This document shows positions 41,539 through 64,000 of a stretch of DNA of 64,000 bases, piece by piece (position 1 is the stretch's first letter; every line of letters begins with the position of its first letter). The stretch comes from an uncultured Alphaproteobacteria bacterium. Its GTDB lineage: Bacteria > Pseudomonadota > Alphaproteobacteria > HIMB59 > GCA-002718135. The notes beneath the pieces were generated by a model. That model was not told the DNA's origin. It did no database searches and saw only the letters and a program-made list of their open reading frames with translations. A program made the position numbers and the translations under genes. The stretch covers positions 8,607-72,606 of the forward strand of contig CACEPG010000002.1 of assembly GCA_902561355.1 (NCBI GenBank), written 5' to 3'.

Positions 41539-41558
41539 AATAATATATATAATATTGA

Positions 41559-41574
41559 TTGAATAAGCATTCAA
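41559..41574 (+). promoter_or_regulatory. operator/promoter cassette TTGAAT-AAGC-ATTCAA (copy 3)
   Basis: A perfect 6-4-6 palindrome in the 55-bp Rieske/DAO divergent spacer. Its first T lies exactly 35 nt before the ATG at 41594. TATAAA follows after a 17-nt spacer. Confidence 0.55.
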
Positions 41575-47843: not shown

Positions 47844-47859
47844 TTTATTGGGGGGTAAA

Positions 47860-48948
47860 ATGCCTAAATACTATGAAACTAAAAATTATTTAGTAAAAAC
47901 TTTAGGTGTGGCAATATTGATGGTTTTTATAACCGGATTATTTACTACATCAAAGGTTTTTGCTGATGAGCCTGGAAGTGTTTTTCTATGGGGTGGATAT
48001 GATGATGATGGACTATTTGGATCTTATGTAGAAGAACATGGATCACCAGAATACGCAACATTTGGTGATGCTGAAGAAGGATTACAAAAATTAAAAGCTG
48101 GTTTTGAAGTGGATTTAGCTTGGCCATGCCAAGGTGAAATAGCTCGATGGGTAAGAGCTGGAGTGCTTGAACCATTAGACACTTCTCGTATAGATAATTG
48201 GGATGATATGTTCCCTGAAGTCAGAGACCTGCCAAGCGGTATTGTTGATGGTCAAAACTATTTTGCACCTATCGATTGGGGTGATACAACTTTATTTTAC
48301 ATGGCTGATCGAATTCCATGGATGAATGCTGACAATGAAAGTTTTGATCTAATGGAAGATCCAAGAGTAAAAGGTAAAGTTGGTATATTAGACTCAGCTG
48401 CTGACTCATTATTTTTAATGATGCATCATCTTGGAATTGATATCAGAGAAAAAGATCAATTAACTAAAGCTGCTATTGATAAAGGTATCAATAAGTTTCG
48501 TGAAATGAGAGATAACGGACAAATACGTGCATTCTTCGGAGACACTTCCTCAATGGTAGAGGCGCTAGGTAACGAAGAAATAGATGTAGCTCTTGGTTGG
48601 AACGAAATTGCATGGAATGCGGGAGCAAAAATGATGCAACCTGCTAATGGAACAATGACGTGGGCTTGTGGGCTTGCCATTGTTAAAGGTGCAGATCTTG
48701 ATAAAGCATATGCAATGATTAATGGAGCTACGAGTGCTGAAACTTCTGCTTACTTACTAAGTGAGTGGGGTTATGGTCATTCAAACATGAAAGGCTTTAG
48801 CACAATTACTGCTGATGAATTAGCTGAACGTGGAGTAGCATCTAATCCTGCAGAACACCTTTCAAATGGAATGTTCTCTGTGATGCCTTCAGATGAAGTA
48901 ACTGATTACATGGAAGCTCAATGGGCTGAAATGGTTGCTGGCGGTTGA
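47860..48948 (+). CDS. ABC-transporter periplasmic substrate-binding protein, PotD/PotF (polyamine) family
   Basis: Has a signal peptide (...LFTTSKVFA/DEPGS) and a roughly 340-aa mature two-lobe SBP-like sequence. It is convergent with PotA/B/C-like genes. I prefer the ATG at 47860, preceded by GGGGGG, over the track TTG at 47848. Confidence 0.8.
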   Translation: MPKYYETKNYLVKTLGVAILMVFITGLFTTSKVFADEPGSVFLWGGYDDDGLFGSYVEEHGSPEYATFGDAEEGLQKLKAGFEVDLAWPCQGEIARWVRAGVLEPLDTSRIDNWDDMFPEVRDLPSGIVDGQNYFAPIDWGDTTLFYMADRIPWMNADNESFDLMEDPRVKGKVGILDSAADSLFLMMHHLGIDIREKDQLTKAAIDKGINKFREMRDNGQIRAFFGDTSSMVEALGNEEIDVALGWNEIAWNAGAKMMQPANGTMTWACGLAIVKGADLDKAYAMINGATSAETSAYLLSEWGYGHSNMKGFSTITADELAERGVASNPAEHLSNGMFSVMPSDEVTDYMEAQWAEMVAGG

Positions 48949-48970
48949 TCAAAGTTTAGTTCAATATCTA

Positions 48971-49007
48971 AATAGCCTGTTCTCTTTTTGAGGGCGGGCT
49001 ATTTTTT
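48971..49007 (+). terminator. rho-independent terminator of the SBP gene
   Basis: The plus-strand RNA forms a 14-bp stem (48971-48984 with 48990-49003, three G-U pairs) and a 5-nt loop. The stem's last pair (A48971-T49003) begins the T-run 49003-49007. The structure contains the stop codon of the convergent ATPase gene. Confidence 0.75.
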
Positions 49008-50081
49008 ATTCAATAAAGAAATATCTTCTAAACTAATACTTATAAAGCACTCGTTATTTTCAAAAGATTGGTTGTCAAAATGTTGTGAAGAAACAGTGAT
49101 AGTCTTATCTATTCCTTTAACTTCAACGTAAAATCTAGTCATTTCTCCTAAATATGAAGTCTGTCTAATCTTAGCATCAAGACAAATATCCCAATCGGAT
49201 TTCACTTTTGAAATCATCATAGATTCTGGGCGAACACTACAAACAACATCAGAAGAATTTGCTGCGATATTTAAATTATTTTTAATTTTAAATTCTCCCA
49301 ATTCTTCGATTGAAACATTGGTGAATCCTCCATCACTTGATTTAGTCTCAGCTTTAAGAAAATTTGTTTCACCTATAAAATCACTTACAAATATATTTTT
49401 TGGATTCTTATAAAGTTCGTTGGGTGCTGATAATTGTTGAATTTTTCCATCATTCATAACTGCAACTCTGTCTGACATACTTATGGCTTCTTGTTGATCA
49501 TGAGTGACAAATACAAAAGTAATTCCAATATTTTTTTGAAGCGTTCTTAATTCTAATTGCATTTCATCTCTTAGTTTTTTATCTAAAGCACCTAGAGGTT
49601 CATCTAATAATAGAACTTTTGGTTGCCTTACTAAAGCTCTAGCAAGAGCAACACGCTGTCTTTGACCACCAGATAGTTGATTGCTAAACCTTTCTTCATA
49701 GCCCTCAAGCTTTACTAATTTAAGAACATCTTTAACTCTATTACCTATCTCATCATGACTTAAACCAAGTTTTCTTAGTCCAAATTTAATATTTTTTTCA
49801 ACATTAAGATGAGGAAAAATTGCATAGTTTTGAAAAACCATATTTGTAGGTCTTTTGTCTGGAGGTAATGCTGTAATATCTATCCCATCAATTAATAGAT
49901 TTCCAGAAGTTGGATATTCAAATCCTGCCAATAACCTCAACAATGTTGTCTTACCACATCCGGAAGGTCCTAAAAGTGAAAAAAATTCACCTTCTTTAAT
50001 CTCAAATGAAACATCATCAACTGCTTTTACATCTGCAAAGTGTTTTGAAATATTATTGATTTGTATAAATGAATTATTCAT
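48999..50081 (-). CDS. ABC-transporter ATP-binding protein, PotA-like
   Basis: Has Walker A GPSGCGKTT, the signature LSGGQRQRVALARAL and Walker B LLLDEP. A C-terminal TOBE-like regulatory domain follows. Confidence 0.9.
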   Translation of the reverse strand: MNNSFIQINNISKHFADVKAVDDVSFEIKEGEFFSLLGPSGCGKTTLLRLLAGFEYPTSGNLLIDGIDITALPPDKRPTNMVFQNYAIFPHLNVEKNIKFGLRKLGLSHDEIGNRVKDVLKLVKLEGYEERFSNQLSGGQRQRVALARALVRQPKVLLLDEPLGALDKKLRDEMQLELRTLQKNIGITFVFVTHDQQEAISMSDRVAVMNDGKIQQLSAPNELYKNPKNIFVSDFIGETNFLKAETKSSDGGFTNVSIEELGEFKIKNNLNIAANSSDVVCSVRPESMMISKVKSDWDICLDAKIRQTSYLGEMTRFYVEVKGIDKTITVSSQHFDNQSFENNECFISISLEDISLLNKK

Positions 50082-50087
50082 AGTTTT

Positions 50088-50897
50088 TTATAATTTCACA
50101 GCTATATCTTTCTTTGCTTTACCTTGTCCAACATTTCTTAACCAGAATGCTAACAAAACAATAAAAGTAGTAAAAACAATAATTACTGCTCCTAATGCCA
50201 GTACATGAGGTAACTTCTGAACAAATCTCATTTGACCCCACATATACATAGGTAACGTTGCATCACTTCCAGTTAAAAAAAATGCAAGAATAAATTCATC
50301 AAAAGAAATTATGAAACTTAGAAGAAGAGCGGCGACTATACCAGGCAAATATAATGGAAATGACACTCTAAAAAATGTTCCCCACGCATTTTCTCCTAAA
50401 TCCCTAGAGGCCTCTTCAAGTGAAAAATCAAAACCTTCAATACGGGCTATAAGTATTAACATTGCAAAAGGTGTACAAAATAAAGTGTGGCCAATTGTTA
50501 CTGGGACAAGTCCCAATTTAAATCCAAGATTGATCCAAATTATCAGTATAGCTACAGCCAAGATAATTTCAGGTATCAAAAATGGCATCATTATACCTCC
50601 ATAAGAAATCTTTTCCCCTCTAAATTTATATCGAGCAAATGCCTTTGCTGCAAATAGTGCAATTGTTGTACTAATGACACTCGCAACAACTCCTACTTTT
50701 ATACTTGCCCATAGAGCCTTATGTAGATTTCTTTTTGACCACATCTCTTCATAGTGCTCCGTTGTAAATCCAGCGAGAGGGAATGACATATAATTTGCAT
50801 CGTTAAAACTAAATATAGGTAAGAATAAAACTGGCACATAAAGAAATACAAAATAAAGAAGGGTATAAATCAGTAATGTATTATTTTTTTCGTTCAT
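50088..50897 (-). CDS. ABC-transporter permease, PotC-like
   Basis: Six transmembrane helices with the EAA loop EEASRDLGENAWGTFFRVSFPLYLPG. Confidence 0.85.
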   Translation of the reverse strand: MNEKNNTLLIYTLLYFVFLYVPVLFLPIFSFNDANYMSFPLAGFTTEHYEEMWSKRNLHKALWASIKVGVVASVISTTIALFAAKAFARYKFRGEKISYGGIMMPFLIPEIILAVAILIIWINLGFKLGLVPVTIGHTLFCTPFAMLILIARIEGFDFSLEEASRDLGENAWGTFFRVSFPLYLPGIVAALLLSFIISFDEFILAFFLTGSDATLPMYMWGQMRFVQKLPHVLALGAVIIVFTTFIVLLAFWLRNVGQGKAKKDIAVKL

Positions 50898-50899
50898 TT

Positions 50900-51784
50900 T
50901 TAAGTTAACCTTTGTGTAAGTCTTTTTGTTACATTCGACACAATTATTGTTATGAGTATAACAGTTGTTAACATAATTGTAGCTGAAGCTGCGCCAAGAG
51001 GAATATTATTTATTTTTCCAAAGTAAGCCTGGATCATATTCGAAAGCATACGACCATCAGTTCCTCCAAGTAAGGCTGGAGTGACATAATCACCTACTGT
51101 AGGAATGAATATGATTAATATCGCTCCTATTACACCAGGTAAAGATAATGGAAATGTAATTTTCCAAAAAACTTCAAATCGAGAGAGTCCAAGATCTCTT
51201 CCTGCTTCAATAAACGAAAAGTCAATTTTTTCTAACGAAACATATAAAGGTAGTAATGCAAATGCTGCCCATGCGTGAGTAAGAGTAATAACTACTGCGG
51301 TTTCTGAATACATAAGAAATGTAAGAGGTTCGCTGAGAATTCCAGCGTTGATCAATGAAGAGTTTATAACTCCTTTTGTTCCAAGAATAATCTTCCAAGA
51401 AAATACTCTTAATAAATAAGATGTCCAAAAAGGCAAAGTGAGCAAAACAAGCCACAACATTTTGTTTTTTTTAACATAAAAAGCGATGTAATAACAAACT
51501 GGGTATGCTGTGATCAGTGTAATTAAAGTTACAAGAAATGATATTTTAATAGACTTTATGAGAAGTGTGACCAGCAAATTTTTTTGAAAGAAATCAATAT
51601 ATCTTTGAAAAGTAAAAGTATAGTCTATCTCCATCATGTTAACTTGAGTAAACATACTAAAGCTCAACATTAGTGCCATTGGTACGACCATAGCCAAAAT
51701 AATTAAAATTAAAGCTGGTGATAATAAAGTATAAGCTTTAACATTATCATTTTTAGCATAAATTTTTCTCCAAAAACCTATCAT
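50900..51784 (-). CDS. ABC-transporter permease, PotB-like
   Basis: Six transmembrane helices with the EAA loop IEAGRDLGLSRFEVFWKITFPLSLPG. Confidence 0.85.
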   Translation of the reverse strand: MIGFWRKIYAKNDNVKAYTLLSPALILIILAMVVPMALMLSFSMFTQVNMMEIDYTFTFQRYIDFFQKNLLVTLLIKSIKISFLVTLITLITAYPVCYYIAFYVKKNKMLWLVLLTLPFWTSYLLRVFSWKIILGTKGVINSSLINAGILSEPLTFLMYSETAVVITLTHAWAAFALLPLYVSLEKIDFSFIEAGRDLGLSRFEVFWKITFPLSLPGVIGAILIIFIPTVGDYVTPALLGGTDGRMLSNMIQAYFGKINNIPLGAASATIMLTTVILITIIVSNVTKRLTQRLT

Positions 51785-51804
51785 ATTTTTTTTCAGCTCC
51801 TTAT

Positions 51805-52983
51805 TTATTCAATTAAAGATTTCAAACCTCGTTTATAAAGAGAATTTGCAATAATAATTCTATGAATTTCACTTGTTCCTTCCCAAATACGGTCCACTCT
51901 TAATTCTCTATAATAACGCTCTGCAACATTCTCTCTCATATATCCTCTTCCACCAAAAATCTGCACTGCACGATCAGCAATTCTATTAGCCATTTCAGAT
52001 GCAAGTAATTTAATCATAGAACATTTTCCATGTAAAATTTTTACATCTTGTTTTGCATCATGAGCTTTGCAAACCTCATAAAGCATTAATCGAGTTGAAG
52101 CTAATTCATTTACACTATCTGCTAACATGAATTGTATAGCTTGATAGTTTGAAATTTTATCACCAAAAGATTCTCTTTCTTTTGCAAAAATTGTTGCTTC
52201 ATCAATTAATCTTTGAGCAGCCCCGCAGCATCTTGCAGCTATACCTAGTCTTTCATGCCTAAACCAGGAATGCGTATAATCCATGCCAATACCTTCATTA
52301 CCAATTATTTTTTTTTCTGAAATTGAAACATTATCAAACCTATAAATAGAATGATGATGTGCATATGTATGACTAAACTTAGGACTATCTATTAACTCAA
52401 TACCTTTCTCATCCTTATCAATTATAAATAGTGAATGCTTGCCCTCATTTGAACCAGATTTAATTTTTGCCTGTAAAAAGAAAAAATCAGCTAGATTTGC
52501 ACTTGTAACATACCATTTTTCGCCATTAATAATATATTGATCTCCCTTTTTTTCTGCTGTTGTTTCAATTGAGCCTTCCACATCTGAACCTGCGCCTTTT
52601 TCTGTAATCGCATAACATTCTTTTTTAGTACCGTTTAAAAGTGGTTTAAAATAATTTTCTTTTTGATAATCAGTAAAATTATTTTCCATCCAATCCTGAG
52701 CTTCTGAAAAACACCAGCATAATGCATTTGTAACTCGGCCTAATTGTTCCCAAACTATCATCTGTTCAAACATATTTAATCCCAAGCCTCCGCTTTCTTT
52801 TGAAATACCCATACCCGGCAAACCTAGTGAAATAGCAATCTCCCGATGTTTTTTTTCAATTTCCTTGGGTAACTCACCTTCATTTTTTTCTGCATGCACC
52901 TCCCAAGGAATTAATTCATCATTAACAAATTTTTTTATCTTTAATTGCCATTCCAAAGCTTTTGGTGTCATGCCGCTATACAT
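51805..52983 (-). CDS. acyl-CoA dehydrogenase family protein
   Basis: Has YAITEKGAGSDV and the C-terminal string YYRELRVDRIWEGTSEIHRIIIA. It is 392 aa and lies 2 nt downstream of the TetR gene. Confidence 0.85.
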   Translation of the reverse strand: MYSGMTPKALEWQLKIKKFVNDELIPWEVHAEKNEGELPKEIEKKHREIAISLGLPGMGISKESGGLGLNMFEQMIVWEQLGRVTNALCWCFSEAQDWMENNFTDYQKENYFKPLLNGTKKECYAITEKGAGSDVEGSIETTAEKKGDQYIINGEKWYVTSANLADFFFLQAKIKSGSNEGKHSLFIIDKDEKGIELIDSPKFSHTYAHHHSIYRFDNVSISEKKIIGNEGIGMDYTHSWFRHERLGIAARCCGAAQRLIDEATIFAKERESFGDKISNYQAIQFMLADSVNELASTRLMLYEVCKAHDAKQDVKILHGKCSMIKLLASEMANRIADRAVQIFGGRGYMRENVAERYYRELRVDRIWEGTSEIHRIIIANSLYKRGLKSLIE

Positions 52984-52985
52984 TG

Positions 52986-53624
52986 TTAAAACATTCCCTT
53001 AAATTGTTTGGGGAAATTAGATTTAATAAACTCAAAACATATTTTCTTTGCTTGTATCCTGTTAAAAGTATCAGGATCTTCAAGTTGATCCAACCATAAT
53101 CCCATAATCAAAGCTTGAAATCCTCTAGAAATATTTTTTTTAGATAATTTCACTTTTTCTTTTTTTATAAGTTCATCAAATATATTTTCAGTTAAAGATT
53201 GGTAATACATATCTCGTTCTTTACAAATTTGATGATAAGCAGGTTTATATTTAATTTCACTAAAAAAAGTAAACCACACTGAAATTTTTTCTCTAGTGCA
53301 AATTTTTTTACTAAAATCATTTTCTACAATTCCAATGATTTTTTTTCTTGGATCATTACCTTTTTTTGCAATACTTCTTTGAAATGAATCTAGATACTCG
53401 TTAGAAATATATTTTAATGTTTCTATTAATAAAAGTTCCTTACTTTTAAAATGAAAATTTACTATACCTTGGGAAAGACCTGCTCCCTGTGATACATCTT
53501 GCATAGTTAATTCATTTATTCCTTTTTTTGATAAATTTTTAATTGTTGAAGAAATTAATTTTAAATTACTATTTTTCTTATTTTCTGATCTAAGATTTCT
53601 TTGTTTCATATTTAATAAATTCAT
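52986..53624 (-). CDS. TetR-family transcriptional regulator (BetI-like ligand domain)
   Basis: The N-terminal HTH is ELTMQDVSQGAGLSQGIVNFHFKSKELLLIETL. The C-terminal strings ISVWFTFFSE...KP.Y and FQALIMGLWLDQL resemble E. coli BetI as I recall it (KAWLAFWASS...QP.LY, ALIDGLWLRAAL). Confidence 0.8.
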   Translation of the reverse strand: MNLLNMKQRNLRSENKKNSNLKLISSTIKNLSKKGINELTMQDVSQGAGLSQGIVNFHFKSKELLLIETLKYISNEYLDSFQRSIAKKGNDPRKKIIGIVENDFSKKICTREKISVWFTFFSEIKYKPAYHQICKERDMYYQSLTENIFDELIKKEKVKLSKKNISRGFQALIMGLWLDQLEDPDTFNRIQAKKICFEFIKSNFPKQFKGMF

Positions 53625-53665
53625 TATAGTTTTTCATAAAAAGCTTGATTTTACAAGAAATTTGG

Positions 53666-53681
53666 TTGAATGCTCATTCAA
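53666..53681 (+). promoter_or_regulatory. operator/promoter cassette TTGAAT-GCTC-ATTCAA (copy 1)
   Basis: A perfect 6-4-6 palindrome in the 76-bp TetR/flavoprotein-operon divergent spacer. Its first T lies exactly 35 nt before the ATG at 53701. Confidence 0.6.
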
Positions 53682-53700
53682 AGAAATATAAGAAAATACA

Positions 53701-55329
53701 ATGAACAAAACTAAATATGATGTTGCTATAATTGGTGGTGGTCATAATGGATTAACCACAGCTTGTTATTTGGCTAAGGCGGGTCTCAAAGTCATTGTTG
53801 TGGAACGACATGAATATGTTGGAGGCGCAGCTGTTAGCAGAGAATTGCATCCAGGTTGGACTTATTCTAATTGCTCATATGTTTGCAGCTTATTAAGACC
53901 TGAGATATTTAGAGATTTAGAATTATCAAAACATGGGCTTCAAATTATACCTTATGAAGGTAGTGCGAGTATGCTTAATGATGGTAGATTTTATGCACAT
54001 TATCAAGATCATGATTTAACTTACAGATCTATCGCTCAATTTTCAAAAAAAGATGCTGAAGCCTATGATAGGTTTGGCAAAGATGTAATGAGGCAATGCA
54101 AAATTATCAAACCTCTTTTAAAAATGACTCCTCCTGACCCTACTTCTTTTAAACCAAAAGATATTATGGGTCTTTTTGAATTTGCAAAATACTTTGCAGC
54201 TAAAGATGAGCTTGGTGGTTTAGGTGAAAAAGAAATTTACGACACCATAAGATTTTGGACAATGAGCGTAAGAGATTATTTAGAAGAATATTTTGAATCA
54301 GATATAGTAAAAGTACATTTAGCTGGATCTGCAATAATAGGTACAGCGCTTGGGCCTTATTCCCCTGGTTCAGCTTATGTATTATTACATCATTACATGG
54401 GAGAAGTAGATGGGACTGTTGGAGCATGGGGGTATTCCAGAGGAGGAATGGGCTCGATTACAAAAGCTATGGCGTCATCTTTAAAATCAAACAATGGTGA
54501 AATAAAAGCAGGTTCACCAGTAAGTCAGATTCTTATCAAAAATAACAAAAGTTATGGACTTGTTCTTGAGAATGGTGATGAAATTTATGCAGATAAAATA
54601 GTTTCTAACCTTGATGTAAAAAGAACTTTTTTAAAAGTTGTAGAAGAAAAAGAATTACCTAGTGATTTTTATAAAGCTGTTAAAAATTTTAAAATTAGAG
54701 GCTCATCAGGAAAATTAAATATTGCTCTTGATGATCTTCCTATTTGGAAGAGTATTCCAGTTGGTGATCCTGCTGGCACTGGTGATCTGCATATAACGCA
54801 AAACATAGAAGAGATGGAAGGAGCTTACGATGATTGGAAGGATGGTAAGTGGTCACAATTTCCTTATGTTGATATGTGCATTCCAAGCATCAATGATCCA
54901 ACTATGGCACCACAAGGAAAACATTATATGTCTGTATTTATTCAATATGTACCCTACAATTTAGCTAATGGAGGTTGGACTGAGGAGAAACGTCTTGAAT
55001 TTGGTAAACATGTAATGAATAGAATTGGCAATTACTCCACAAACTTTAATGATATTATCAATCATGCAGAAATTAGAACTCCTAAAGAAATAGAAGCTGA
55101 GGTTGGTTTAACTGAAGGCAATATATTCCAAGGCGAACTAACCATGGACCAATTAATGTTTAATCGTCCAGTACCTGGTTATGCTCAATATAAGACACCG
55201 ATCAAAAATCTATATATGTGTGGATCAAGCACGCATCCTGGCGGAGGTGTTATGGGTGCACCTGGAGTTAATGCAGCAAGAGAAATATTAAAAGATTTAA
55301 AGATGAAAATATCAACACATTACATATGA
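53701..55329 (+). CDS. NAD(P)/FAD-dependent oxidoreductase, CrtI/amine-oxidase superfamily, PYROXD2-like
   Basis: Has YDVAIIGGGHNGLTTACYLAKAGLKVIVVERHEYVGGAA and CSYVCSLLRPEIFRDLELSKHGL, the latter close to the human PYROXD2 string as I recall it. The C-terminal string is LYMCGSSTHPGGGVMGAPG. Length is 542 aa. Confidence 0.8.
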   Translation: MNKTKYDVAIIGGGHNGLTTACYLAKAGLKVIVVERHEYVGGAAVSRELHPGWTYSNCSYVCSLLRPEIFRDLELSKHGLQIIPYEGSASMLNDGRFYAHYQDHDLTYRSIAQFSKKDAEAYDRFGKDVMRQCKIIKPLLKMTPPDPTSFKPKDIMGLFEFAKYFAAKDELGGLGEKEIYDTIRFWTMSVRDYLEEYFESDIVKVHLAGSAIIGTALGPYSPGSAYVLLHHYMGEVDGTVGAWGYSRGGMGSITKAMASSLKSNNGEIKAGSPVSQILIKNNKSYGLVLENGDEIYADKIVSNLDVKRTFLKVVEEKELPSDFYKAVKNFKIRGSSGKLNIALDDLPIWKSIPVGDPAGTGDLHITQNIEEMEGAYDDWKDGKWSQFPYVDMCIPSINDPTMAPQGKHYMSVFIQYVPYNLANGGWTEEKRLEFGKHVMNRIGNYSTNFNDIINHAEIRTPKEIEAEVGLTEGNIFQGELTMDQLMFNRPVPGYAQYKTPIKNLYMCGSSTHPGGGVMGAPGVNAAREILKDLKMKISTHYI

Positions 55330-56792: not shown

Positions 56793-57994
56793 TGAATACA
56801 TCAAAAATATCATACAAAAAACCTCTCTTAGAGACACCTTTTCACGAAAGAACATCTGAGCATTGTTATGCAAATGATTGGTATAGATGGGCTGGTTATA
56901 AAGTTGCTAAAGAGTACTCATCAACAGAACTTGAGTATACTTCAATGAGAAATACAGCTGGGGTAATTGATATTACTCCTATGCATAAATATGATATCAA
57001 AGGTGAGGATGCTAAAAAGTTTATTAATAAATTAATCACAAAAGATATTACTAATATTCAATCAAACCAAGTTGCCTATGGCATATGGTGCAATGAAGAT
57101 GGAATGGTAATTGATGATGGAACAATATTTTGCTTTAATGAAAATCATTTTAGAATTTTTTGTGCAGAACGAAATCTAAATTGGTTTTCTGACACAGCTA
57201 CGGGATTTAATGCAAGTGTTGAGGATATAAGTCCATCAATTGCCGCTTTAGCTTTTCAAGGGCCATTATCTTGTAAGATATTAAATTTATTAAAAGTAGA
57301 AAATATAGAAAACCTAAAACCATTTCATTTTAATAATTATAATATTGAAAATCATAATGTTACAATTTCCAGAACAGGTTTTTCTGGAGACTTAGGTTAT
57401 GAAATATGGTGTGACCCTTCTCAAGCCATTGATGTATGGGATAGTTTATTTAAATTTAATAGAGACTATAAAGTACTAGCAGCTGGAATGAATGCACTTG
57501 AGATGGTCAGAATTGAAGCTGGTTTTATCCAACCTAATGTAGATTTTATGTCTGCGGAACAAGCTTTAAGACCCAATAGAATGAGAAACCCCTATGAATT
57601 AGGTTTGGGCTGGTTAGTAAATCTAGATAAAGAGTATTTTACTGGAAAACAGGCATTAATTAGACACAAAGAAAAAGGTCCTGAAAAAAAACTCGTGGGA
57701 TTAGATATTGAAGGAGATAAACCTGCCGTTGGTTCTGTACTCTACGATAATAGTAAAAAAAATCAAGCCAAAGAAATTGGTATAGTGACAGCTGCAATGT
57801 GGTCCCCTGTCCTTAAATCTAATATTGCGATTGGATTTGTTAGCAAAGAACATTATAAATTAGGATCAAATGTTTATGCTGAAATTTATCATCCAGAAGA
57901 GCTGGATTACAGAAAAATTTGGGCTGAATGTAAAGTGGTTAAAAAGCAATTTTTTAACAATCCAAGAAGAAATGAAACACCTGCGTTTACATAA
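56792..57994 (+). CDS. stand-alone aminomethyltransferase (GcvT/DmdA-fold, folate-binding) family protein
   Basis: Has MRNTAGVIDITPMHKYDIKGEDA and ISRTGFSGDLGYEIW (compare GcvT ISRTGYTGEDGFEI). It is 400 aa and has a TAATG overlap with the upstream gene. Confidence 0.8.
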   Translation: MNTSKISYKKPLLETPFHERTSEHCYANDWYRWAGYKVAKEYSSTELEYTSMRNTAGVIDITPMHKYDIKGEDAKKFINKLITKDITNIQSNQVAYGIWCNEDGMVIDDGTIFCFNENHFRIFCAERNLNWFSDTATGFNASVEDISPSIAALAFQGPLSCKILNLLKVENIENLKPFHFNNYNIENHNVTISRTGFSGDLGYEIWCDPSQAIDVWDSLFKFNRDYKVLAAGMNALEMVRIEAGFIQPNVDFMSAEQALRPNRMRNPYELGLGWLVNLDKEYFTGKQALIRHKEKGPEKKLVGLDIEGDKPAVGSVLYDNSKKNQAKEIGIVTAAMWSPVLKSNIAIGFVSKEHYKLGSNVYAEIYHPEELDYRKIWAECKVVKKQFFNNPRRNETPAFT

Positions 57995-58000
57995 AGAATA

Positions 58001-59152
58001 ATGGAATTTAATCTTTCAGAAGAACAGAATCTTTTAATTGATACTACTAAGTCATTTGTAAAAGCAGAATTGCTTCAACACGAAGAATTATTAGAAAAAA
58101 CAAATAATTTACCAAAAGAATTGTATGATGAAATTAAGCAAAAAAGTATTAAAGCAGGTTTGTATGCTTGCAATATGCCCACTGAACATGGTGGTGGTGG
58201 TTTAAATGCTTTTGATTTAACTTTAGTTGAAAAACATCTCGGTTTTGCATCACTTGCTTTAGCGGAAGTTGCTTGGCGACCACAAAATATCTTAATGGCC
58301 TGTGAAGGTAAATTAATTGATGAATACTTAAAACCAGCTATCACAGGTGAGAGAAAAGATTGCATAGCAATGACAGAACCAGGAGCTGGTTCAGATTTAC
58401 GGGGGATGAAAACAAAAGCAGTTAAGGATGGTAATGATTGGGTGATTAATGGAACAAAACATTTTATATCTAATGCACACATATCTGACTTTGTAGTACT
58501 TTTTGCCTCAACAGGTGAAGATGAAAAAGGTAGAAATTTACTTTCGTGTTTCTTAGTTGATTTAAAACAAAAAGGAGTTGAGGTTGCAAAAGGTTATGAC
58601 TGTGTTTCTCACAGAGGATACGTTAATAATATTTTAAACTTTAATGATTGCAGAATTCCTGCAAGAAATATTCTTGGTGAAAAAGATAAAGGCTTTGAGC
58701 TAATGAATGTTTGGTTAGAAGCAACTCGTTTAACTGTTGCGGCAACTTCTGTATCTAGAGCCGAAAGAGCTTTTGATATAGCCTTGGATTGGTCTGCAAA
58801 TAGAAAACAATTTGGAAAAGTCATTGGAAAATTTCAGGGTGTTTCATTTAAATTAGCTGATATGGCTACAGAAATTAAACTAGCAAACTTGATATTAATG
58901 GAGTCTGCTTGGAAAATTGATCAAAAAACATTAACATCTCAAGATGCGGCTATGACAAAATTATTTTGTACTGAAATGTTAAGTAGAGTCTCTGATGAAG
59001 CTATTCAAATCCTTGGTGGAATGGGATTGATGTCAGATATTCCACTTGAAAGAATATGGCGAGATGCAAGAATAGAAAGAATTTGGGAAGGCACCAGTGA
59101 AATTCAACGTCATATTATTTCACGTTCACTTCTAAGACCCCTTGGAGCATAA
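58001..59152 (+). CDS. acyl-CoA dehydrogenase family protein (CaiA/DmdC-position)
   Basis: The N-terminus is MEFNLSEEQ. It also has AMTEPGAGSDL and the C-terminal string RDARIERIWEGTSEIQRHIISR. Length is 383 aa. Confidence 0.85.
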   Translation: MEFNLSEEQNLLIDTTKSFVKAELLQHEELLEKTNNLPKELYDEIKQKSIKAGLYACNMPTEHGGGGLNAFDLTLVEKHLGFASLALAEVAWRPQNILMACEGKLIDEYLKPAITGERKDCIAMTEPGAGSDLRGMKTKAVKDGNDWVINGTKHFISNAHISDFVVLFASTGEDEKGRNLLSCFLVDLKQKGVEVAKGYDCVSHRGYVNNILNFNDCRIPARNILGEKDKGFELMNVWLEATRLTVAATSVSRAERAFDIALDWSANRKQFGKVIGKFQGVSFKLADMATEIKLANLILMESAWKIDQKTLTSQDAAMTKLFCTEMLSRVSDEAIQILGGMGLMSDIPLERIWRDARIERIWEGTSEIQRHIISRSLLRPLGA

Positions 59153-59155
59153 TCT

Positions 59156-61192
59156 TTGAATTTAAAAAAACTTTTTAGACCAAAAAGTCTTGCTTTAGTT
59201 GGAGGGTATTGGGCAGACTTTGTTTATGATGGCAATAAAACTATTGGCTATCAAGGTAAAGTTTGGCATATAAATCCTTCACGTAAAAGCTCCAAAGCAA
59301 AAAAATATTATAAAAATATTAAAGATCTTCCAGAAGTACCTGATTGCGTTTATCTAGCTGTCTCAAGGGATCAAACAGTAAAATTAATAAAAGATATTGC
59401 TGACATAGGTGTTGGAGGTACTGTTTGTTTAGCTTCGAGATTTTCTGAACTTAATTCTAAAGAAGGTACAAATAAAACTAATGAGCTAATTAGGAATGCT
59501 GGCAAAATGCCTTTCCTTGGACCAAATTGTTATGGATTTATAAATTACTTGGATAGAATTTCAGTATGGTCTGATCAAGTAGCAGGCAAACCAACTAAAA
59601 AAGGTGTTGCTATTATATGTCAAAGTGGAACTATTGGTAATACGATTAGTTTTAATAATAGATCTTTACCAATTGGGTATATAATTTCTCTCGGCAATCA
59701 ATCACAAATAACGATAGAAGATGCCATTAATTATGCTTTAGATGATAAGAGAGTTACTGCTATTGGAATTTATGCTGAAAGTTTTACCAATACAGAAAAG
59801 TTAATAAAAGTATTTAAAAAATCCAGATTAAAAAAAATTCCTATAGCATTAGTTAAAGTAGGCAGATCTAAAACTGCGTCTAAAACAATATTAACACATA
59901 CTGGATCACTAAGCGGGAAAGAAGATATATATGATTCTTTATTTCAAAGAATGGGTGTGGCTAGATGTAATACATTAGGAGAGTTATGTGAAATTTTAAA
60001 ATTACTTCACACTCATGGTGCTTTAAATAACGATAAAATTTCAATTATGGGTCCATCAGGTGGTGATATGGCTATGATAGGAGACGTTGCAGAAACTTTA
60101 TCATTAAATTTTGGTAAAATACCTACAAAAATAAAAAATGAATTAAAAAAAGTTAATCACCCAAGTGTTATAATTTCAAATCCATTCGATCTACAAACAT
60201 ACAACTGGAATGACCCTAAGCAATTAGCAAAAACATTTAAATTAATATTTAAAACTAATTTTGGTTTAAATGCACTTATGCTAGATTTTCCAAATATAGA
60301 AGATTGTGACACTGCAGAATGGGATGCTATAGTAGATCAATTTATAAAATCATCAAAAATAAAAAAAAATGGAGCGATTATTTCTTCACTTTCAGATACC
60401 CTTCCTAAATATCTAAGAGAAAAATGTCTTAAGTCAGGAGTTGTTCCACTTCAGGGTATGTCAGAGAGTTTACTAGCCATAAGTAACTCAATAAAAATTT
60501 CAAAAGCTTGGAGTAATTTTAGTGAAATTAAAATTTCAAAAAAATTACAAAATCATAAAAAGAAAATTAAAACATTTTCAGAATATGAATCAAAATTAAT
60601 CCTAAAAAAATTTAAAATATCTACACCAAAATCTTTAATTACAAATAAAAAAAATATTTTGCGAGATTATAAAAAAATTGGATTTCCTTTAGTGGCAAAA
60701 ATACATTCAACTAAATTTTTTCATAAAACTGAAATTGGAGGTGTTATTATTAACATTAATAATGAAAAAGAATTAAAGCAAAAGACAAATAAATTTAGAG
60801 GCAATATCTTAATTGAAAAAATGATATCAAATTCGATTTTTGAAATGATAATAGGCATAAAAAATGATAGCCAATTTGGACCTACAATAATATTGGGGGC
60901 TGGTGGTATTTATACCGAATTATTTAAAGATACGACTACCTTACTTTTACCTTTAAATAAAAAAATAATTTTGGATGAAATAAAAAAACTTAAATTTAGC
61001 AAAATATTATTTGGTTTTAGAGGAAGTAATATTGCTGATATTGATGCATTAGTAAATACAATATTAAAAGTAGCTGTTTTTGCTGAAAAAAATTCAGATA
61101 AAATTTCAGAAGTTGATATAAATCCACTAATAGTTTGTAAAAAAGGTAAAGGTGTATTTGCTGTAGATGCTCTAATACATTATTTAATATAG
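59156..61192 (+). CDS. NDP-forming acyl-CoA synthetase (CoA-binding, succinyl-CoA-ligase-like and ATP-grasp domains fused)
   Basis: The N-terminus LFRPKSLALVGG marks the CoA-binding fold. It also has ICQSGTIG and HTGSLSG (phosphohistidine-loop type) and a C-terminal ATP-grasp string (PLVAKIHS...HKTEIGGV). It is 678 aa and uses a TTG start. Confidence 0.8.
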   Translation: MNLKKLFRPKSLALVGGYWADFVYDGNKTIGYQGKVWHINPSRKSSKAKKYYKNIKDLPEVPDCVYLAVSRDQTVKLIKDIADIGVGGTVCLASRFSELNSKEGTNKTNELIRNAGKMPFLGPNCYGFINYLDRISVWSDQVAGKPTKKGVAIICQSGTIGNTISFNNRSLPIGYIISLGNQSQITIEDAINYALDDKRVTAIGIYAESFTNTEKLIKVFKKSRLKKIPIALVKVGRSKTASKTILTHTGSLSGKEDIYDSLFQRMGVARCNTLGELCEILKLLHTHGALNNDKISIMGPSGGDMAMIGDVAETLSLNFGKIPTKIKNELKKVNHPSVIISNPFDLQTYNWNDPKQLAKTFKLIFKTNFGLNALMLDFPNIEDCDTAEWDAIVDQFIKSSKIKKNGAIISSLSDTLPKYLREKCLKSGVVPLQGMSESLLAISNSIKISKAWSNFSEIKISKKLQNHKKKIKTFSEYESKLILKKFKISTPKSLITNKKNILRDYKKIGFPLVAKIHSTKFFHKTEIGGVIININNEKELKQKTNKFRGNILIEKMISNSIFEMIIGIKNDSQFGPTIILGAGGIYTELFKDTTTLLLPLNKKIILDEIKKLKFSKILFGFRGSNIADIDALVNTILKVAVFAEKNSDKISEVDINPLIVCKKGKGVFAVDALIHYLI

Positions 61193-61200
61193 TTTAATTT

Positions 61201-61977
61201 ATGGACAAACCAGTTAAAACAAAAATTGAAGGATCAATATTAGAGATAACTATTGATCGACCAAAAGCTAATGCGATAGATGCTAAGACAAGTATAATGT
61301 TGGGAAATATATTTGCTGACTTTAGAGATAATCCAAAACTTAAAGTAGCTATCATTACAGGTGGCGGAGAAAAATTTTTTTCTGCCGGATGGGATCTAAA
61401 GGCTGTTAATGAAGGAGAGGCTGCTGATGCAGATTATGGTGTTGGTGGATTTGGAGGACTGCAAGAGTTACCTAATATGAACAAACCTATTATAGCAGCT
61501 GTTAATGGTATTGCGTGCGGTGGTGGTTTTGAAATTATGATTTCAGCAGATATTATAATTGCCGCAGAACACGCAACATTTGCGTTACCTGAAATCAATG
61601 TAGGAGTTGTAGCTGACGCAGCTACAATAAAATTAAGAAGACGTATACCCTATCACGTAGCTGTTGAGTTTTTAATGACTGGAAGATGGATGGATGTCAA
61701 AGAAGCAAAACACTGGGGTTTAGTAAATGAAATTGTTAAAACAAATGATTTATTAAAAAGAGCCTGGGAAATAGCTGATAAAATTTCAAAAGGACCTAAT
61801 TTAATTTATTCTTCAATTAAAGAAGTTTTAAGAGAAACAGAAAACGAAAAGGAAATACCATCATTTAAAATTTTGCGATCATTAGAATCAGTAAAAAAAG
61901 TTTATGGAAGTGAAGATCTAAAAGAAGGAGCTTCTTCTTTTGTTAAAAAAACAGATCCGAATTGGAAAGATAAATAG
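61201..61977 (+). CDS. crotonase-family hydratase, closely CaiD-like (carnitinyl-CoA dehydratase / crotonobetainyl-CoA hydratase type)
   Basis: [21 protein letters not shown] and [39 protein letters not shown] are almost colinear with E. coli CaiD as I recall it ([60 protein letters not shown]). An alignment is needed to confirm this. Confidence 0.8.
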   Translation: [258 protein letters not shown]

Positions 61978-61995
61978 AATATAAAAATTATTTCA

Positions 61996-62017
61996 TTGAA
62001 TGCTCATTCAGTGAATG
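61996..62017 (+). promoter_or_regulatory. operator/promoter cassette TTGAAT-GCTC-ATTCAG overlapping a second palindrome CATTCA-G-TGAATG (copy 2)
   Basis: The 15-nt core TTGAATGCTCATTCA is identical to copy 1. It lies in the 53-bp spacer between the CaiD-like gene and the aminotransferase. Its first T is exactly 35 nt before the ATG at 62031, and TACAGT follows after a 17-nt spacer. Confidence 0.6.
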
Positions 62018-62030
62018 ATACAGTTAAATC

Positions 62031-63407
62031 ATGAAAAATGATTATGTTAGTGAAATCCATAAGAAAGATAAACTTGTTCTCCATCCATATGAAGATATGG
62101 AAAGTAGAGGAACTTATGACCGTAAACTTATTGTAAAATCAGATAATATTTATCTTTATGATGAAAATGGAAAAGAATACATTGATGGACCTGGAGGTAT
62201 GTGGTGTAATAACATAGGGCACGGAAATAAAGAGATAGGTGAGGCTGTTAAAAATCAACTAGAAAAAATGGAATATTGCAGCCCTTTTTCAGAATCTAGT
62301 GAAATTTCTGCTGAATTAGCTTCTGTTCTATCTGAATTGTCTCCTGGAGATCTTAATACAGTTTTTTTTACTACTGATGGCTCTACAGCCAATGATACTG
62401 CTCTAAGATTTATTATGTTTTATAATAACATATTAGGCAGACCTAATAAAAAACACTTTATCACTAGGCATAAAGCTTATCATGGAAGCACTTATCTTAC
62501 AGGATCAATAACAGGCAAAGATAGGGAAAAAAATAATTTTGATTTTGAAAAAAATTTCATTCATCATTTGAGTTCACCTCTTGCTTATAGAAGAAAAAAA
62601 AACCAAACAATTCAAGAATTTTGTGATGAACTTGTAAAAGAATTTGAAGATAAAATAATAGAATTAGGATCAGAAAATGTTGCAGCTTTTATTGCTGAAC
62701 CAGTCATGGCTTCAGGTGGTTGTATAGTCCCTCCTGAAGGATATTTAAAAAGAATTTGGCAAATATGCAAAAAATATGATGTTTTATATATTTCTGATGA
62801 AGTAGTTACAGGGTTTGGAAGAATGGGTCATTTTTTTTCTTCTGAAGAAGTTTTTGAAATAGTTCCTGATATTATAACTTGTGCTAAGGGAATTACATCA
62901 GGATATATGCCTCTTGGAGCTGTCTTATTTTCTGACAAATTACTAAATGATATTAAAAAAGAATCTGCACTTTTTTTTCACGGCTATACTTATTCAGGAC
63001 ATCCTGCATGTTGTGCTGCAGCATTAAAAAACATAGAAATTATTGAACGAGATAAAATTCTTGAACATGTTCAAGAAATTGAACCCTACTTTCATAATAA
63101 ATTACAAAAATTGTATGAATTACCAATTGTTGGAGATGTAAGAGGTAAAGGATTAATGGCAGGCATAGAATGTGTAATAAATAAAGATAGTAAGGAAGCA
63201 CTTATTTTAGATAAAGCTATAGGATCAAGAATTGATGAGGAATCAATTAAATTAGGCTTAATTATTAGACCGCTCTATCATATTTGTGTTTTATCTCCTG
63301 CTTTAATAATTACAAAATCACAAATTGATGATCTTGTTGAAAAATTATTTACTGCTATTCAAAATTCTCTTCAACAACTTAAAACAGAAGGTTTATGGAA
63401 AGATTAA
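62031..63407 (+). CDS. class-III (omega-amino acid / diamine : pyruvate or 2-oxoglutarate) aminotransferase
   Basis: Has GGMWCNNIGHG, ISDEVVTGFGRMG and the PLP-Lys context ITCAKGITSGY. Length is 458 aa. Confidence 0.85.
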   Translation: MKNDYVSEIHKKDKLVLHPYEDMESRGTYDRKLIVKSDNIYLYDENGKEYIDGPGGMWCNNIGHGNKEIGEAVKNQLEKMEYCSPFSESSEISAELASVLSELSPGDLNTVFFTTDGSTANDTALRFIMFYNNILGRPNKKHFITRHKAYHGSTYLTGSITGKDREKNNFDFEKNFIHHLSSPLAYRRKKNQTIQEFCDELVKEFEDKIIELGSENVAAFIAEPVMASGGCIVPPEGYLKRIWQICKKYDVLYISDEVVTGFGRMGHFFSSEEVFEIVPDIITCAKGITSGYMPLGAVLFSDKLLNDIKKESALFFHGYTYSGHPACCAAALKNIEIIERDKILEHVQEIEPYFHNKLQKLYELPIVGDVRGKGLMAGIECVINKDSKEALILDKAIGSRIDEESIKLGLIIRPLYHICVLSPALIITKSQIDDLVEKLFTAIQNSLQQLKTEGLWKD

Positions 63408-63416: not shown

Positions 63417-64000
63417 ATGTTTTCTGCAATTAAAAATTATGCAGATTTTAGCACTGTAAATTCTAGTATTAAATATTTATCAATTGTTGCTTTTTTTACT
63501 GGCGTTGTTTTAGGATATTTTTTTACAATTATAGTAATTTTACAAAAATATGCAGGTTATTCAGAATTTACAATAGGAATTGTAGCTTCTTGTTTCTCTT
63601 TTGGATTAATGTCAGCCGGTTTTATAGTCACAAAAGTACTTAATAAAATTGGTTTATTTTTGACACTTATTTTTGCAGTATCTTTACAAACTGTATGTAT
63701 AATTTCTATGTTTGCTTATTTTAATCCAATTAATTTAGCAACTTGTCATTTTGTTATGGGTCTTATGGGGGGGATGAATTGGATGACAATGGATGCTTGG
63801 GCTAACATAGTTTCAAGTGATAAAAATAGAGGGAAAGCTATAGGCTTATATAATTCTTCTATTTCTATAGGATTTGGAGTTGGTCCATTAATTGTTGCAT
63901 TATACGGAAGCTCTGGAAATTTACCTGTAATAATTTGCTTAATCCTAATGTCTTTAAGAATTTTAACTATCATATTTATTAAAAAACATATTCATGAAGT
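63417..64000 (+). CDS. MFS-type transporter, N-terminal part (runs off the 3' edge; not in the ORF track)
   Basis: My hand translation from the ATG at 63417 gives a stop-free frame to the window end. It contains at least five hydrophobic helices and an MFS loop-like string, SSDKNRGKAIG. Confidence 0.6.
   Translation, partial: MFSAIKNYADFSTVNSSIKYLSIVAFFTGVVLGYFFTIIVILQKYAGYSEFTIGIVASCFSFGLMSAGFIVTKVLNKIGLFLTLIFAVSLQTVCIISMFAYFNPINLATCHFVMGLMGGMNWMTMDAWANIVSSDKNRGKAIGLYNSSISIGFGVGPLIVALYGSSGNLPVIICLILMSLRILTIIFIKKHIHE

Follow-up and report, generated by a model that had tools for sequence, protein, structure and literature searches.

Several known enzymes couple the oxidation of N-methyl amines to tetrahydrofolate (THF). 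In dimethylglycine dehydrogenase (DMGDH) or oxidase, sarcosine dehydrogenase and the heterotetrameric sarcosine oxidase SoxBDAG, the N-methyl amine is oxidized by a flavoprotein, and its one-carbon (C1) unit is caught on THF by a GcvT-fold domain. The gamma-N-methylaminobutyrate oxidase is another folate-linked flavoprotein N-demethylase, and the trimethylamine N-oxide (TMAO) demethylase Tdm is a precedent for a GcvT domain that captures formaldehyde from a separate active site. Another route for gamma-butyrobetaine is conversion to carnitine, and we take the genes bcoA/B, bcoC and bcoD of Rhizobiaceae to encode an aerobic CoA route that turns gamma-butyrobetaine into L-carnitine. Among the butyrobetaine enzymes listed in a previous study (PMC8604678), the consumers CntAB and YeaWX release trimethylamine (TMA), MtyB, a cobalamin enzyme, takes off a single methyl group, and no aerobic stepwise demethylation route is included. 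Here we describe a locus in a 64,000-nucleotide stretch of DNA from an uncultured alphaproteobacterium (contig CACEPG010000002.1; positions 1-64,000, hereafter the window), in which two flavoproteins, Flv1 and Flv2, and a stand-alone GcvT-like protein are encoded next to a TetR-family regulator. An earlier note on this DNA had read positions 47860-63407 as a candidate system, centred on a BetI-like TetR regulator, for the catabolism of an N-methylated or quaternary amine. The flavoproteins, the folate-binding GcvT-like protein and the transaminase support this description, and the island is most likely catabolic, serving a methylated and most likely quaternary ammonium compound.

The locus shares features with the described systems and departs from each of them. 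The GcvT-like protein matches the folate domains of DMGDH and SoxBDAG, which have flavoproteins of the DAO fold. The flavoproteins in the window, in contrast, are of the PYROXD2/CrtI-MAO fold and are two paralogs with a separate folate protein. In the window, soxB and soxA match only the Rossmann N-terminus or the GcvT domain, and neither soxD nor soxG was found. Tdm is the best NCBIfam family of the GcvT-like protein and shares a DDGT motif with it, but Tdm is one fused polypeptide whose N-terminal domain is metal-dependent and uses no flavin, whereas the partners in the window are flavoproteins. Curated families were compared in NCBIfam (June 2026) as score versus equivalog cutoff, and no protein of 47860-63407 reaches such a cutoff, except that the aminotransferase (AT) passes a model with only a generic name (NF005447, 668 vs 618). 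There is no NCBIfam equivalog for the Flv1-Flv2-GcvT trio, the names given by PGAP are generic, and our full-text literature searches, within the limits of the tools, found no published characterization of it. The earlier note held that the gene combination matches no known pathway. We likewise found no characterized equivalent, but the mismatch it saw with the Bco route holds only in part, as part of the operon is collinear with a carnitine operon (see below).

An invariant three-gene core with an accessory CoA module

Species-representative genomes were scanned by alignment with Flv1, and relatives were confirmed at at least 593 matched stretches. The best 80 loci among the matches listed have Flv1 identities of 58-100%, and orthologs across matched loci are 58-73% identical. 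These 80 loci come from Pelagibacterales, Rhizobiaceae, Mesorhizobium, Shinella, Kiloniella, Rhodobacterales, Steroidobacteraceae, Woeseiaceae, Halieaceae, Porticoccaceae and Burkholderiales. Neighbouring genes were counted by tblastn at the 62 loci with full 10-kb flanks, which represent Alpha-, Beta- and Gammaproteobacteria; ORF calling missed real genes in high-GC loci (GcvT was found in 47 only). Flv2 and the GcvT-like protein are encoded beside Flv1 at all 62 loci. TetR is present at 56 of them, the aminotransferase at 55, transporter genes at 46-51 and a GbcA-like Rieske oxygenase at 34. Counts for the remaining genes are 22 for acyl-CoA dehydrogenase (ACAD), 19 for aldehyde dehydrogenase (ALDH), 12 for NDP-forming acyl-CoA synthetase (ACS), 7 for enoyl-CoA hydratase (ECH), 9 each for glutamine-synthetase-like (GS-like) and carnitine-dehydrogenase-like proteins, and 6 for DAO-family flavoproteins. 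At 37 of the 62 loci the core is present without any CoA-pathway gene. Since the trio is found at every locus and ACAD, ACS and ECH each at less than 40% of them, the six-gene operon of the window consists of an invariant Flv1-Flv2-GcvT core and an accessory CoA module. The conservation that the earlier note proposed to test for the whole six-gene block thus applies to the trio and not to the other three genes. Flv1 and Flv2 overlap by 4 nt and Flv2 and the GcvT-like gene by 1 nt, and these start/stop overlaps are kept across loci.

The same modularity is seen between close relatives. At the DNA level, the window shares ~90% identity with a contig from AG-426-C22, a marine single-cell genome of an uncultured alphaproteobacterium. 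In comparison with a sister single-cell genome (L001), DNA identity is 97-99% from acyl-CoA dehydrogenase 1 (ACAD1) through TetR, Flv1 and Flv2 to the GcvT-like gene and 93-95% in the transporter genes, and falls to 74-82% from ~58.6 kb rightwards, that is, from the middle of acyl-CoA dehydrogenase 2 (ACAD2). Protein identities are 66% for ACS, 83% for AT and 54% for the MFS transporter. The position of this breakpoint inside ACAD2 suggests that the accessory module recombined or had its allele replaced, and the right-hand genes have a history separate from that of the core.

Two arrangements recur around the core. Gammaproteobacterial-type contigs have ABC transporter, ACAD and TetR genes divergent from AT, Flv1, Flv2, GcvT, ACS, ECH, DAO and GS genes, which is nearly the full architecture of the window, and a TetR-Rieske fusion gene lies beyond. 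In their loci, orthologs of ACAD1 (53-62% identical) stand beside TetR. Pelagibacterales-type contigs have TetR divergent from Flv1, Flv2, GcvT, AT, Rieske, DAO, PotB, PotC and PotA, and the gene for the solute-binding protein (SBP) follows PotA on the opposite strand, so the SBP belongs to the same gene set as in the window. The MFS family of the window also adjoins TetR at three loci (L003, L086 and L087; Pfam MFS_1). Other recurring neighbours are OYE+Pyr_redox_2 flavoproteins, ALDH, MAO-type oxidases and carnitine dehydrogenase (CDH)-thioesterase fusions; we take the OYE+Pyr_redox_2 architecture to be that of DgcA, trimethylamine dehydrogenase and N-methylproline demethylase. HTCC1062 has only four aminomethyltransferases, none of them with such neighbours (Sun et al. 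2011), and model SAR11 strains therefore probably lack the cluster.

At one locus (L027, 11993-14362) an ORF reads from Flv2 into GcvT, an apparent fusion that was not trusted because this long-read metagenome-assembled genome (MAG) shows signs of frameshifts. Apparent Flv2-GcvT fusions were rejected, one being a start-codon artefact in high-GC DNA and the other coming from a long-read MAG with likely frameshifts. On plasmid pW43C of Parasedimentitalea marina (L088), a LysR-regulated block at 852-4171, a few kb from the Flv cluster, encodes an aminotransferase, a BKACE protein, a histone-deacetylase-family protein and an amidohydrolase, and may be a further unit for amine or betaine catabolism.

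Flv1 is assigned by sequence to the PYROXD2 family proper. Residues 4-534 align with a PYROXD2-named cluster of the oyster Crassostrea/Magallana gigas at ~40% identity (E 3.6e-112), and a choanoflagellate homolog aligns similarly; the likeness to PYROXD2 proposed in the earlier note is therefore real and extends over the full length. An exhaustive HMMER search found ~2,100 representatives of 50% clusters at E <=1e-30, including eukaryotic proteins with N-terminal presequences. The bacterial orthologs form a distinct subfamily with at least 58% identity, always accompanied by Flv2 and the GcvT-like protein. To our knowledge, PYROXD2, an orphan mitochondrial flavoprotein of animals, has no known partner, reaction or biochemical function. 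Human PYROXD2 variants associate reproducibly with N6-methyllysine and N6,N6-dimethyllysine (PMC9730628), and also with urinary trimethylamine (PMC5310055).

Over the full length, Flv2 and Flv1 share 29% identity, and both have kept the FAD motifs. Flv2 retains GGGHNGL and HPGGGV and lacks the motifs specific to Flv1, as the invariant segments YSNCSYVCSLLRP and YVLLHHYMG occur in Flv1 only. Flv1 evolves slowly (~60% identity across classes) and Flv2 fast (30-45%). We propose that Flv1 is the catalytic subunit and Flv2 a partner subunit. Among NCBIfam models, CrtO is best for Flv1 (284 vs 1000), and the crtI_fam cutoff (TIGR02734, 238.1) is reached by neither Flv1 (107.9) nor Flv2 (74.8). By sequence, the PDB contains only CrtI as a match of Flv1 (E 1e-17). 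The AlphaFold model of Flv1 is mediocre (pLDDT 64) and its PDB fold matches are at the superfamily level only, the CrtI-MAO superfamily, which includes amine oxidases. Carotenoid biosynthesis was set aside, as there is no crtB, crtE or crtY in the 33-64 kb region or among the recurrent neighbours of 89 loci.

The nearest relatives of the GcvT-like protein are the T-protein 1woo and the C-terminal domain of Tdm, and DmdA is a weaker match. The Tdm domain is best in NCBIfam (251 vs 1100), and the equivalog cutoffs for GcvT (NF001567, 228 vs 300; TIGR00528, 187 vs 236) and DmdA (NF009133, 165.9 vs 410) are not reached. In the PDB, DmdA (3tfh, 101 bits) scores below T-proteins and Tdm. The catalytic-Asp segment GMVIDDGTIF aligns with GGIIDDLVVY of 1woo and GGMVDDGT of Tdm, and all 48 aligned orthologs keep the DDGT motif with its DD pair. 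Because the T-protein motifs are kept and the DD pair is invariant, the GcvT-like protein is a better fit for trapping a methylene or formaldehyde unit on THF than for methyl transfer of the DmdA type. True glycine cleavage was set aside, as no gcvH or gcvP is adjacent in 33-64 kb or found among the recurrent neighbours. The DmdABCD pathway was also set aside, given the DmdA score far below the cutoff and a CoA synthetase of the NDP-forming ATP-grasp type and not of the AMP-forming DmdB type.

A shared operator and the extent of the island

The 14-mer TGAATGCTCATTCA occurs as exact copies at 53667-53680, upstream of Flv1, and at 61997-62010, upstream of AT. A third copy, which differs at one position, is found at 41560-41573, where the Rieske and DAO genes diverge, outside the interval of the earlier note. 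With up to two mismatches, five matches were found against 1.33 expected, a number reached in one of 100 shuffles. The operator consists of inverted arms around a CT centre that is not symmetric (7+2+7); the palindrome is repeated in both spacers as the earlier note claimed, but is not perfect. The motif TGAAYRNNCATTCA is located within 300 nt upstream of Flv1 at 32 of the 80 loci, in both Alpha- and Gammaproteobacteria, and we therefore consider the operator class TTGAATG-N2-CATTCAA to be genuine and conserved. The TetR regulon in the window is predicted to include at least three promoters, those of Flv1, AT and Rieske/DAO.

The regulator shares TetR_N and a BetI-type C-terminal domain with BetI, which is also its best NCBIfam family. 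It differs from BetI in that it scores below both BetI cutoffs (TIGR03384, 106 vs 201; NF001978, 101 vs 118), is not located beside betA, betB or betT (no betA or betB homolog adjoins it) and controls another gene set. Cores like TGAACGTTCA within the operator, seen in rhizobial loci, presumably resemble BetI boxes. At 12 loci of the Steroidobacteraceae type, TetR and Rieske genes are fused (TetR_N + TetR_C_6 + Rieske + Ring_hydroxyl_A, ~570-617 aa; for example L081 20662-21602 and L007 ~4035-5571).

In the PDB, the Rieske protein is far closer to the stachydrine demethylase Stc2 (3vca/4qup, 258 bits) than to CntA (144 bits) or aromatic dioxygenases (115 bits or less), and its best NCBIfam family is GbcA (NF058607, 334 vs 670, cutoff not reached). 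As Stc2 and GbcA are far closer than CntA or the aromatic enzymes, we assign it from these scores to the quaternary-ammonium N-demethylases. It has the same two domains as GbcA/BmoA and Stc2 and has an operator in common with the Flv operon, but it scores below the GbcA cutoff and the island shows no gene for a reductase partner. The longest Rieske ORF begins at a TTG that overlaps operator copy 3, and there is an in-frame ATG at 41538. This ATG is probably the true start, because it puts the operator in a 55-bp divergent spacer common with the DAO gene. The Rieske and DAO genes are also adjacent at two Pelagibacterales-type loci (L086 and L090).

The functional island thus reaches left to ~37.6 kb, where housekeeping genes start, and covers ~26 kb in all (~37.6-64 kb; Table 1). 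The interval that the earlier note took for the whole system is its right-hand two-thirds; the Rieske gene, two DAO genes and GS-like genes upstream had been missed, together with one promoter carrying the same operator. Within the interval, the gene order, strands, spacers and overlaps were as described: the minus-strand unit has gaps of 6, 2, 20 and 2 nt, the divergent spacer is 76 bp, and the gaps from the GcvT-like gene to ECH are 8 nt or less. The spacer between ECH and AT is 53 nt. Profile searches found all the Pfam families predicted there, namely Amino_oxidase/NAD_binding_8 twice, GCV_T with GCV_T_C, Acyl-CoA_dh twice, Aminotran_3, ECH_1 and, for ACS, CoA_binding_2 with Succ_CoA_lig and ATP-grasp_5. 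Overall, the earlier observation is confirmed and its interpretation is partly supported.

Table 1 Predicted features of the island, from gene annotation of 33-64 kb of the window
Feature	Position	Strand	Basis
DAO-family flavoprotein a (PuuB/pipecolate-oxidase-like)	37571..38893	-	Pfam DAO 206 bits
Glutamine-synthetase-like gamma-glutamyl-amine ligase a	38945..40309	+	Pfam Gln-synt_C 333 bits
Rieske non-haem-iron oxygenase alpha subunit, Stc2/GbcA-like	40306..41574	-	Pfam Rieske + Ring_hydroxyl_A
Operator copy 3 (TTGAATAAGCATTCAA), Rieske/DAO divergent junction	41559..41574	.	one-mismatch match to 14-mer
DAO-family flavoprotein b, divergent from Rieske gene	41594..42928	+	Pfam DAO 174 bits
Agmatine-deiminase-like protein	42934..43980	+	Pfam PAD_porph 374 bits; TIGR03380 346 vs 382
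N-carbamoylputrescine amidase AguB	43997..44866	+	TIGR03381 437.5, above cutoff 410
Glutamine-synthetase-like ligase b	44856..46241	-	Pfam Gln-synt_C 319 bits; below equivalog cutoffs
Amidase-signature amidase	46300..47775	+	Pfam Amidase 310 bits
Solute-binding protein (SBP), PotD/PotF superfamily	47860/47848..48948	+	SBP_bac_8 69 bits
Hairpin terminator between convergent SBP and PotA genes	48970..49004	.	15-bp stem then T-run
ABC transporter ATPase (PotA-like)	48999..50081	-	Pfam ABC_tran/TOBE_2
ABC permease, PotC-like	50088..50897	-	BPD_transp_1
ABC permease, PotB-like	50900..51784	-	BPD_transp_1
Acyl-CoA dehydrogenase 1 (ACAD1), co-transcribed with TetR	51805..52983	-	Pfam Acyl-CoA_dh N, M, C domains
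TetR-family repressor, BetI-type ligand domain	52986..53624	-	TetR_N + TetR_C_6
Operator copy 1 (TTGAATGCTCATTCAA), 76-bp divergent spacer	53666..53681	.	motif search
Flv1, PYROXD2-family FAD flavoprotein	53701..55329	+	Pfam Amino_oxidase/NAD_binding_8
Flv2, diverged Flv1 paralog	55326..56792	+	Pfam Amino_oxidase/NAD_binding_8
Stand-alone GcvT-like folate-binding protein	56792..57994	+	GCV_T 190 bits + GCV_T_C
Acyl-CoA dehydrogenase 2 (ACAD2), Bco-type trio gene 1	58001..59152	+	Pfam Acyl-CoA_dh
NDP-forming acyl-CoA synthetase (ACS), alpha-beta fusion, trio gene 2	59156..61192	+	CoA_binding_2 + Succ_CoA_lig + ATP-grasp_5
CaiD-like enoyl-CoA hydratase (ECH), trio gene 3	61201..61977	+	ECH_1 201 bits
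Operator copy 2 (TTGAATGCTCATTCAG), upstream of aminotransferase	61996..62011	.	motif search
Class-III omega-amine:pyruvate-type aminotransferase (AT)	62031..63407	+	Aminotran_3 302 bits
MFS transporter, runs off window end	63417..64000	+	54% identity to MFS after AT in L001

Among the upstream proteins, DAO a is best matched by AmaA (190 vs 600) and is 35% identical to the DAO protein encoded after ECH at two loci (L061 and L083), and DAO b is 46.5% identical to the DAO protein downstream of ECH at the second of these. GS-like a is below all NCBIfam equivalog cutoffs (GGputSyn, 197 vs 650). The AguA-like/AguB pair (42934-44866; agmatine to putrescine) lies inside the island between betaine-type and Puu-like genes and may belong to the regulon. 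The window shares the amidase gene with one MAG (L002), and the gene is precisely absent from the sister genome by blastn, as an indel between the GS-like b and SBP genes. The hairpin between SBP and PotA is flanked by T/A runs and is likely a bidirectional terminator. An Rfam scan of the 64-kb window found no riboswitch, and its only match was one tRNA gene (23545-23626, minus strand). A promoter scan gave 71 sites against 86 expected and carries little information in DNA of 30% GC. GC content is ~28-35% over most of the window; positions 1-8000 are exceptionally low (19-23%), and the rest is 26-35%.

The PotD/PotF superfamily, as the earlier note suggested, is the right placement of the SBP: PDB entries of PotF and PotD match it at E 1e-15 to 1e-9. 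The SBP falls in metagenome clusters of ~1,000 members each and is far below the PotF and PotD equivalogs (43.8 vs 636 and 35.6 vs 582), and the ATPase passes the PotA subfamily model TIGR01187 (368, above 355.6) and reaches no equivalog model. A Pelagibacter ubique protein annotated as PotD, SAR11_1336, binds glycine betaine with a Kd of 2 nM, DMSP and other osmolytes (PMC11485210). Because this SAR11 PotD binds betaines, the label PotD-like is no argument for polyamines, and the polyamine inference from that label falls.

The accessory module was compared with the locus of Peteryoungia aggregata (L044), a member of the Rhizobiaceae, where ACAD, ACS and ECH genes are followed by a BKACE gene and then by a dehydrogenase-thioesterase that scores above the carnitine 3-dehydrogenase cutoff (630.7 vs 592). 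This CoA block is directly beside SBP, TetR, Flv1, Flv2 and GcvT. The ACAD2-ACS-ECH trio of the window is collinear with it (55%, 29% and 58% identity over full lengths), and ACAD2 is 62% identical to the ACAD of L027. ECH is best matched by the crotonobetainyl-CoA hydratase CaiD (297 vs 500), and the CaiA cutoff of 540 is reached by neither ACAD2 (185) nor ACAD1 (163). From gene order and homology to the L044 trio, these genes appear to match the Bco-type route, and the order of ACAD, NDP-forming CoA synthetase and CaiD-like hydratase is also that of the Bco route and E. coli Cai. They differ in that the window lacks both carnitine dehydrogenase and BKACE, that the trio is joined into the Flv operon, and that the CaiD and CaiA cutoffs are not reached.

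A proposed demethylation route and its competitors

We propose that the island carries out stepwise oxidative N-demethylation of a betaine of the gamma-butyrobetaine type, with C1 capture on THF followed by transamination, a proposal for which we see about equal chances of being right and wrong. The substrate, whose identity we infer, would be taken up by the PotD-superfamily ABC system. The Stc2/GbcA-like Rieske protein, judging from its family, would remove the first N-methyl of a trimethylammonium group. The Flv1-Flv2 pair would then oxidize the resulting tertiary or secondary N-methyl amine, and the GcvT-like protein would pass the C1 unit to THF. A joint reaction of these three proteins is suggested by the invariant synteny, the start/stop overlaps and the T-protein motifs, and would make them a split, non-homologous analogue, perhaps a physical complex, of DMGDH, heterotetrameric sarcosine oxidase or Tdm. 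A DAO flavoprotein may perform the last demethylation. The class-III omega-transaminase would remove the freed primary amine, with ALDH acting after it in some lineages. In the minority of genomes that have it, the accessory CoA module (ACS, ACAD2 and CaiD-like ECH, plus ACAD1) would handle the carboxylate chain as a CoA ester. The favoured chain would run from butyrobetaine through 4-dimethylaminobutyrate and 4-methylaminobutyrate to GABA and succinate semialdehyde. Omega-trimethylammonio acids such as gamma-butyrobetaine appear to fit best as the substrate class, because of the Bco-like trio, the adjacency of CDH, the CaiD-like ECH, the GABA-type transaminase ending and the omega-N-methyl associations of PYROXD2. 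Other candidates may be beta-alanine betaine, 5-aminovalerate betaine, methylated lysines and N-methylated polyamines.

Several points weigh against this proposal. Enzyme scores stay below the NCBIfam equivalog cutoffs throughout, and each specific activity above is accordingly a prediction. The nearest folds of Flv1 are CrtD and CrtI (CrtD TM 0.67-0.74), and NicA2, MAO and putrescine oxidase reach a TM of ~0.5. There is no Rieske reductase partner and there are no ETF genes in the island. Searches by tblastn with the L044 proteins found neither CDH-thioesterase nor BKACE in the 64-kb window; both may be located elsewhere in the genome. The product of a Bco-type route would therefore have no obvious fate in the window. 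The SBP is at most a possible ortholog of SAR11_1336. The island contains genes of polyamine type (AguA/AguB, two GS-like and two DAO genes), and AT, which in the PDB matches 3i5t best (438 bits) and after it the transaminases of putrescine, GABA and polyamines, is as close to the putrescine/polyamine enzymes as to GABA transaminases.

These last features belong to a polyamine explanation, which we consider unlikely while giving it serious weight. It holds that spermidine, putrescine or a polyamine with N-methylation enters through a PotABCD-like system, that Flv1/Flv2 is a polyamine dehydrogenase or oxidase with the amine-oxidase fold, that AT is a polyamine:pyruvate transaminase of the SpuC type, that the GS-like and DAO proteins perform Puu/Pau gamma-glutamylation, and that the CoA module degrades an aminoacyl or beta-alanine-type chain. 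The best NCBIfam matches of the transporter are PotA, PotB and PotC; AguB is above its cutoff next to an AguA-like neighbour, with the GS-like and DAO genes also upstream; AT matches putrescine/polyamine transaminases (6gwi, 335 bits; 9j4z, 311 bits); a PuuD-like Peptidase_C26 gene is found in L086; and Flv1 matches Pfam Amino_oxidase. However, unmethylated polyamines would yield no C1 unit and would leave the invariant GcvT-like protein (62/62) unexplained. Against it stand also the Stc2/GbcA-type Rieske protein under the common operator, the BetI-like regulator, the CaiD-like ECH in a trio tied to carnitine dehydrogenase in L044, and the SBP, which scores 36-44 bits against PotD/PotF models and has a betaine-binding SAR11 counterpart in name (PMC11485210). 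Somewhat less likely still is a glycine betaine route through dimethylglycine and sarcosine, with the Rieske protein as GbcA analogue, Flv1-Flv2-GcvT in place of DgcAB/DMGDH, DAO as sarcosine oxidase, and, where it occurs, the Bco-type trio directing carbon from carnitine or butyrobetaine to glycine betaine. There are three types of demethylase in succession; GbcA is the best family of the Rieske protein and the regulator is BetI-like; the core in L044 adjoins a complete carnitine-to-betainyl-CoA gene set; and a SAR11 PotD binds glycine betaine (PMC11485210). But the omega-transaminase at 55 of 62 loci would have no role after glycine, nor would ACAD1 and ACS of the gammaproteobacterial operons in glycine betaine breakdown, the Rieske protein is at half the GbcA cutoff, and ALDH at 19 loci fits an ending from amine to aldehyde to acid.

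The CrtD, CrtI and CrtO relationships of Flv1, by both structure and sequence, would suit C-C chemistry, an explanation that we regard as improbable. Flv1/Flv2 would be a CrtI-type desaturase, saturase or isomerase whose substrate is an unsaturated compound, either a betaine such as crotonobetaine or a CoA ester, and the GcvT-like protein a methyltransferase of the DmdA/LigM type acting on a sulfonium, ammonium or O-methyl group. DmdA and LigM, both of the GcvT family and both among the matches of the GcvT-like protein, act alone as demethylases, and ACAD, ACS and ECH resemble the logic of DmdB/C/D. Yet 37 of 62 loci have the core without any CoA-pathway gene, the GcvT-like protein is nearer to T-protein and Tdm than to DmdA and LigM and keeps the aminomethyl/methylene-type DDGT motif, the human PYROXD2 associations are with N-methyl amines (PMC9730628), and a joint function of the three proteins is indicated by their invariant start/stop overlaps. 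That the gene order is fortuitous, with unrelated small operons packed into a streamlined genome, is hardly credible: very short spacers are found everywhere in streamlined marine genomes and the divergence history of the right-hand module differs from that of the core, but the core trio is complete at all 62 loci, with TetR and AT at 55-56 of them, in three proteobacterial classes, and the operator is present at three promoters and conserved across classes. For the core, chance adjacency is refuted by the locus census and the conservation of the operator upstream of Flv1.

Methylated-amine cycling and PYROXD2

Stepwise demethylation of a gamma-butyrobetaine-type compound leads to a broader claim, which we put forward tentatively and judge possible rather than probable. 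Flv1-Flv2-GcvT would be an unrecognized three-protein, THF-coupled N-methyl-amine dehydrogenase with the PYROXD2 fold as its base. Together with the Rieske protein and the omega-transaminase, it would constitute an undescribed aerobic route for the full demethylation of omega-trimethylammonio compounds without release of TMA, widespread in ocean and soil Proteobacteria, and it would, through homology, assign human PYROXD2 a reaction class, demethylation of amines of the N-epsilon-methyl-lysine type. Folate-linked oxidative N-demethylation is itself known; the different flavoprotein family and the split three-protein arrangement would be new.

Counts of 'PotD' in ocean omics data should not be taken as polyamine uptake. 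The trio is conserved across hundreds of bacterial species, with at least 593 matched stretches in species-representative genomes, is abundant in marine metagenomes and carries generic annotation only. If it is a folate-linked N-demethylase, it would add a new enzyme architecture to methylated-amine cycling, and in the proposed route methyl groups would enter the C1 pool rather than leave as trimethylamine. The bacterial context also provides a concrete hypothesis for human PYROXD2, which is among the strongest replicated metabolite-QTL signals (methyl-lysines).

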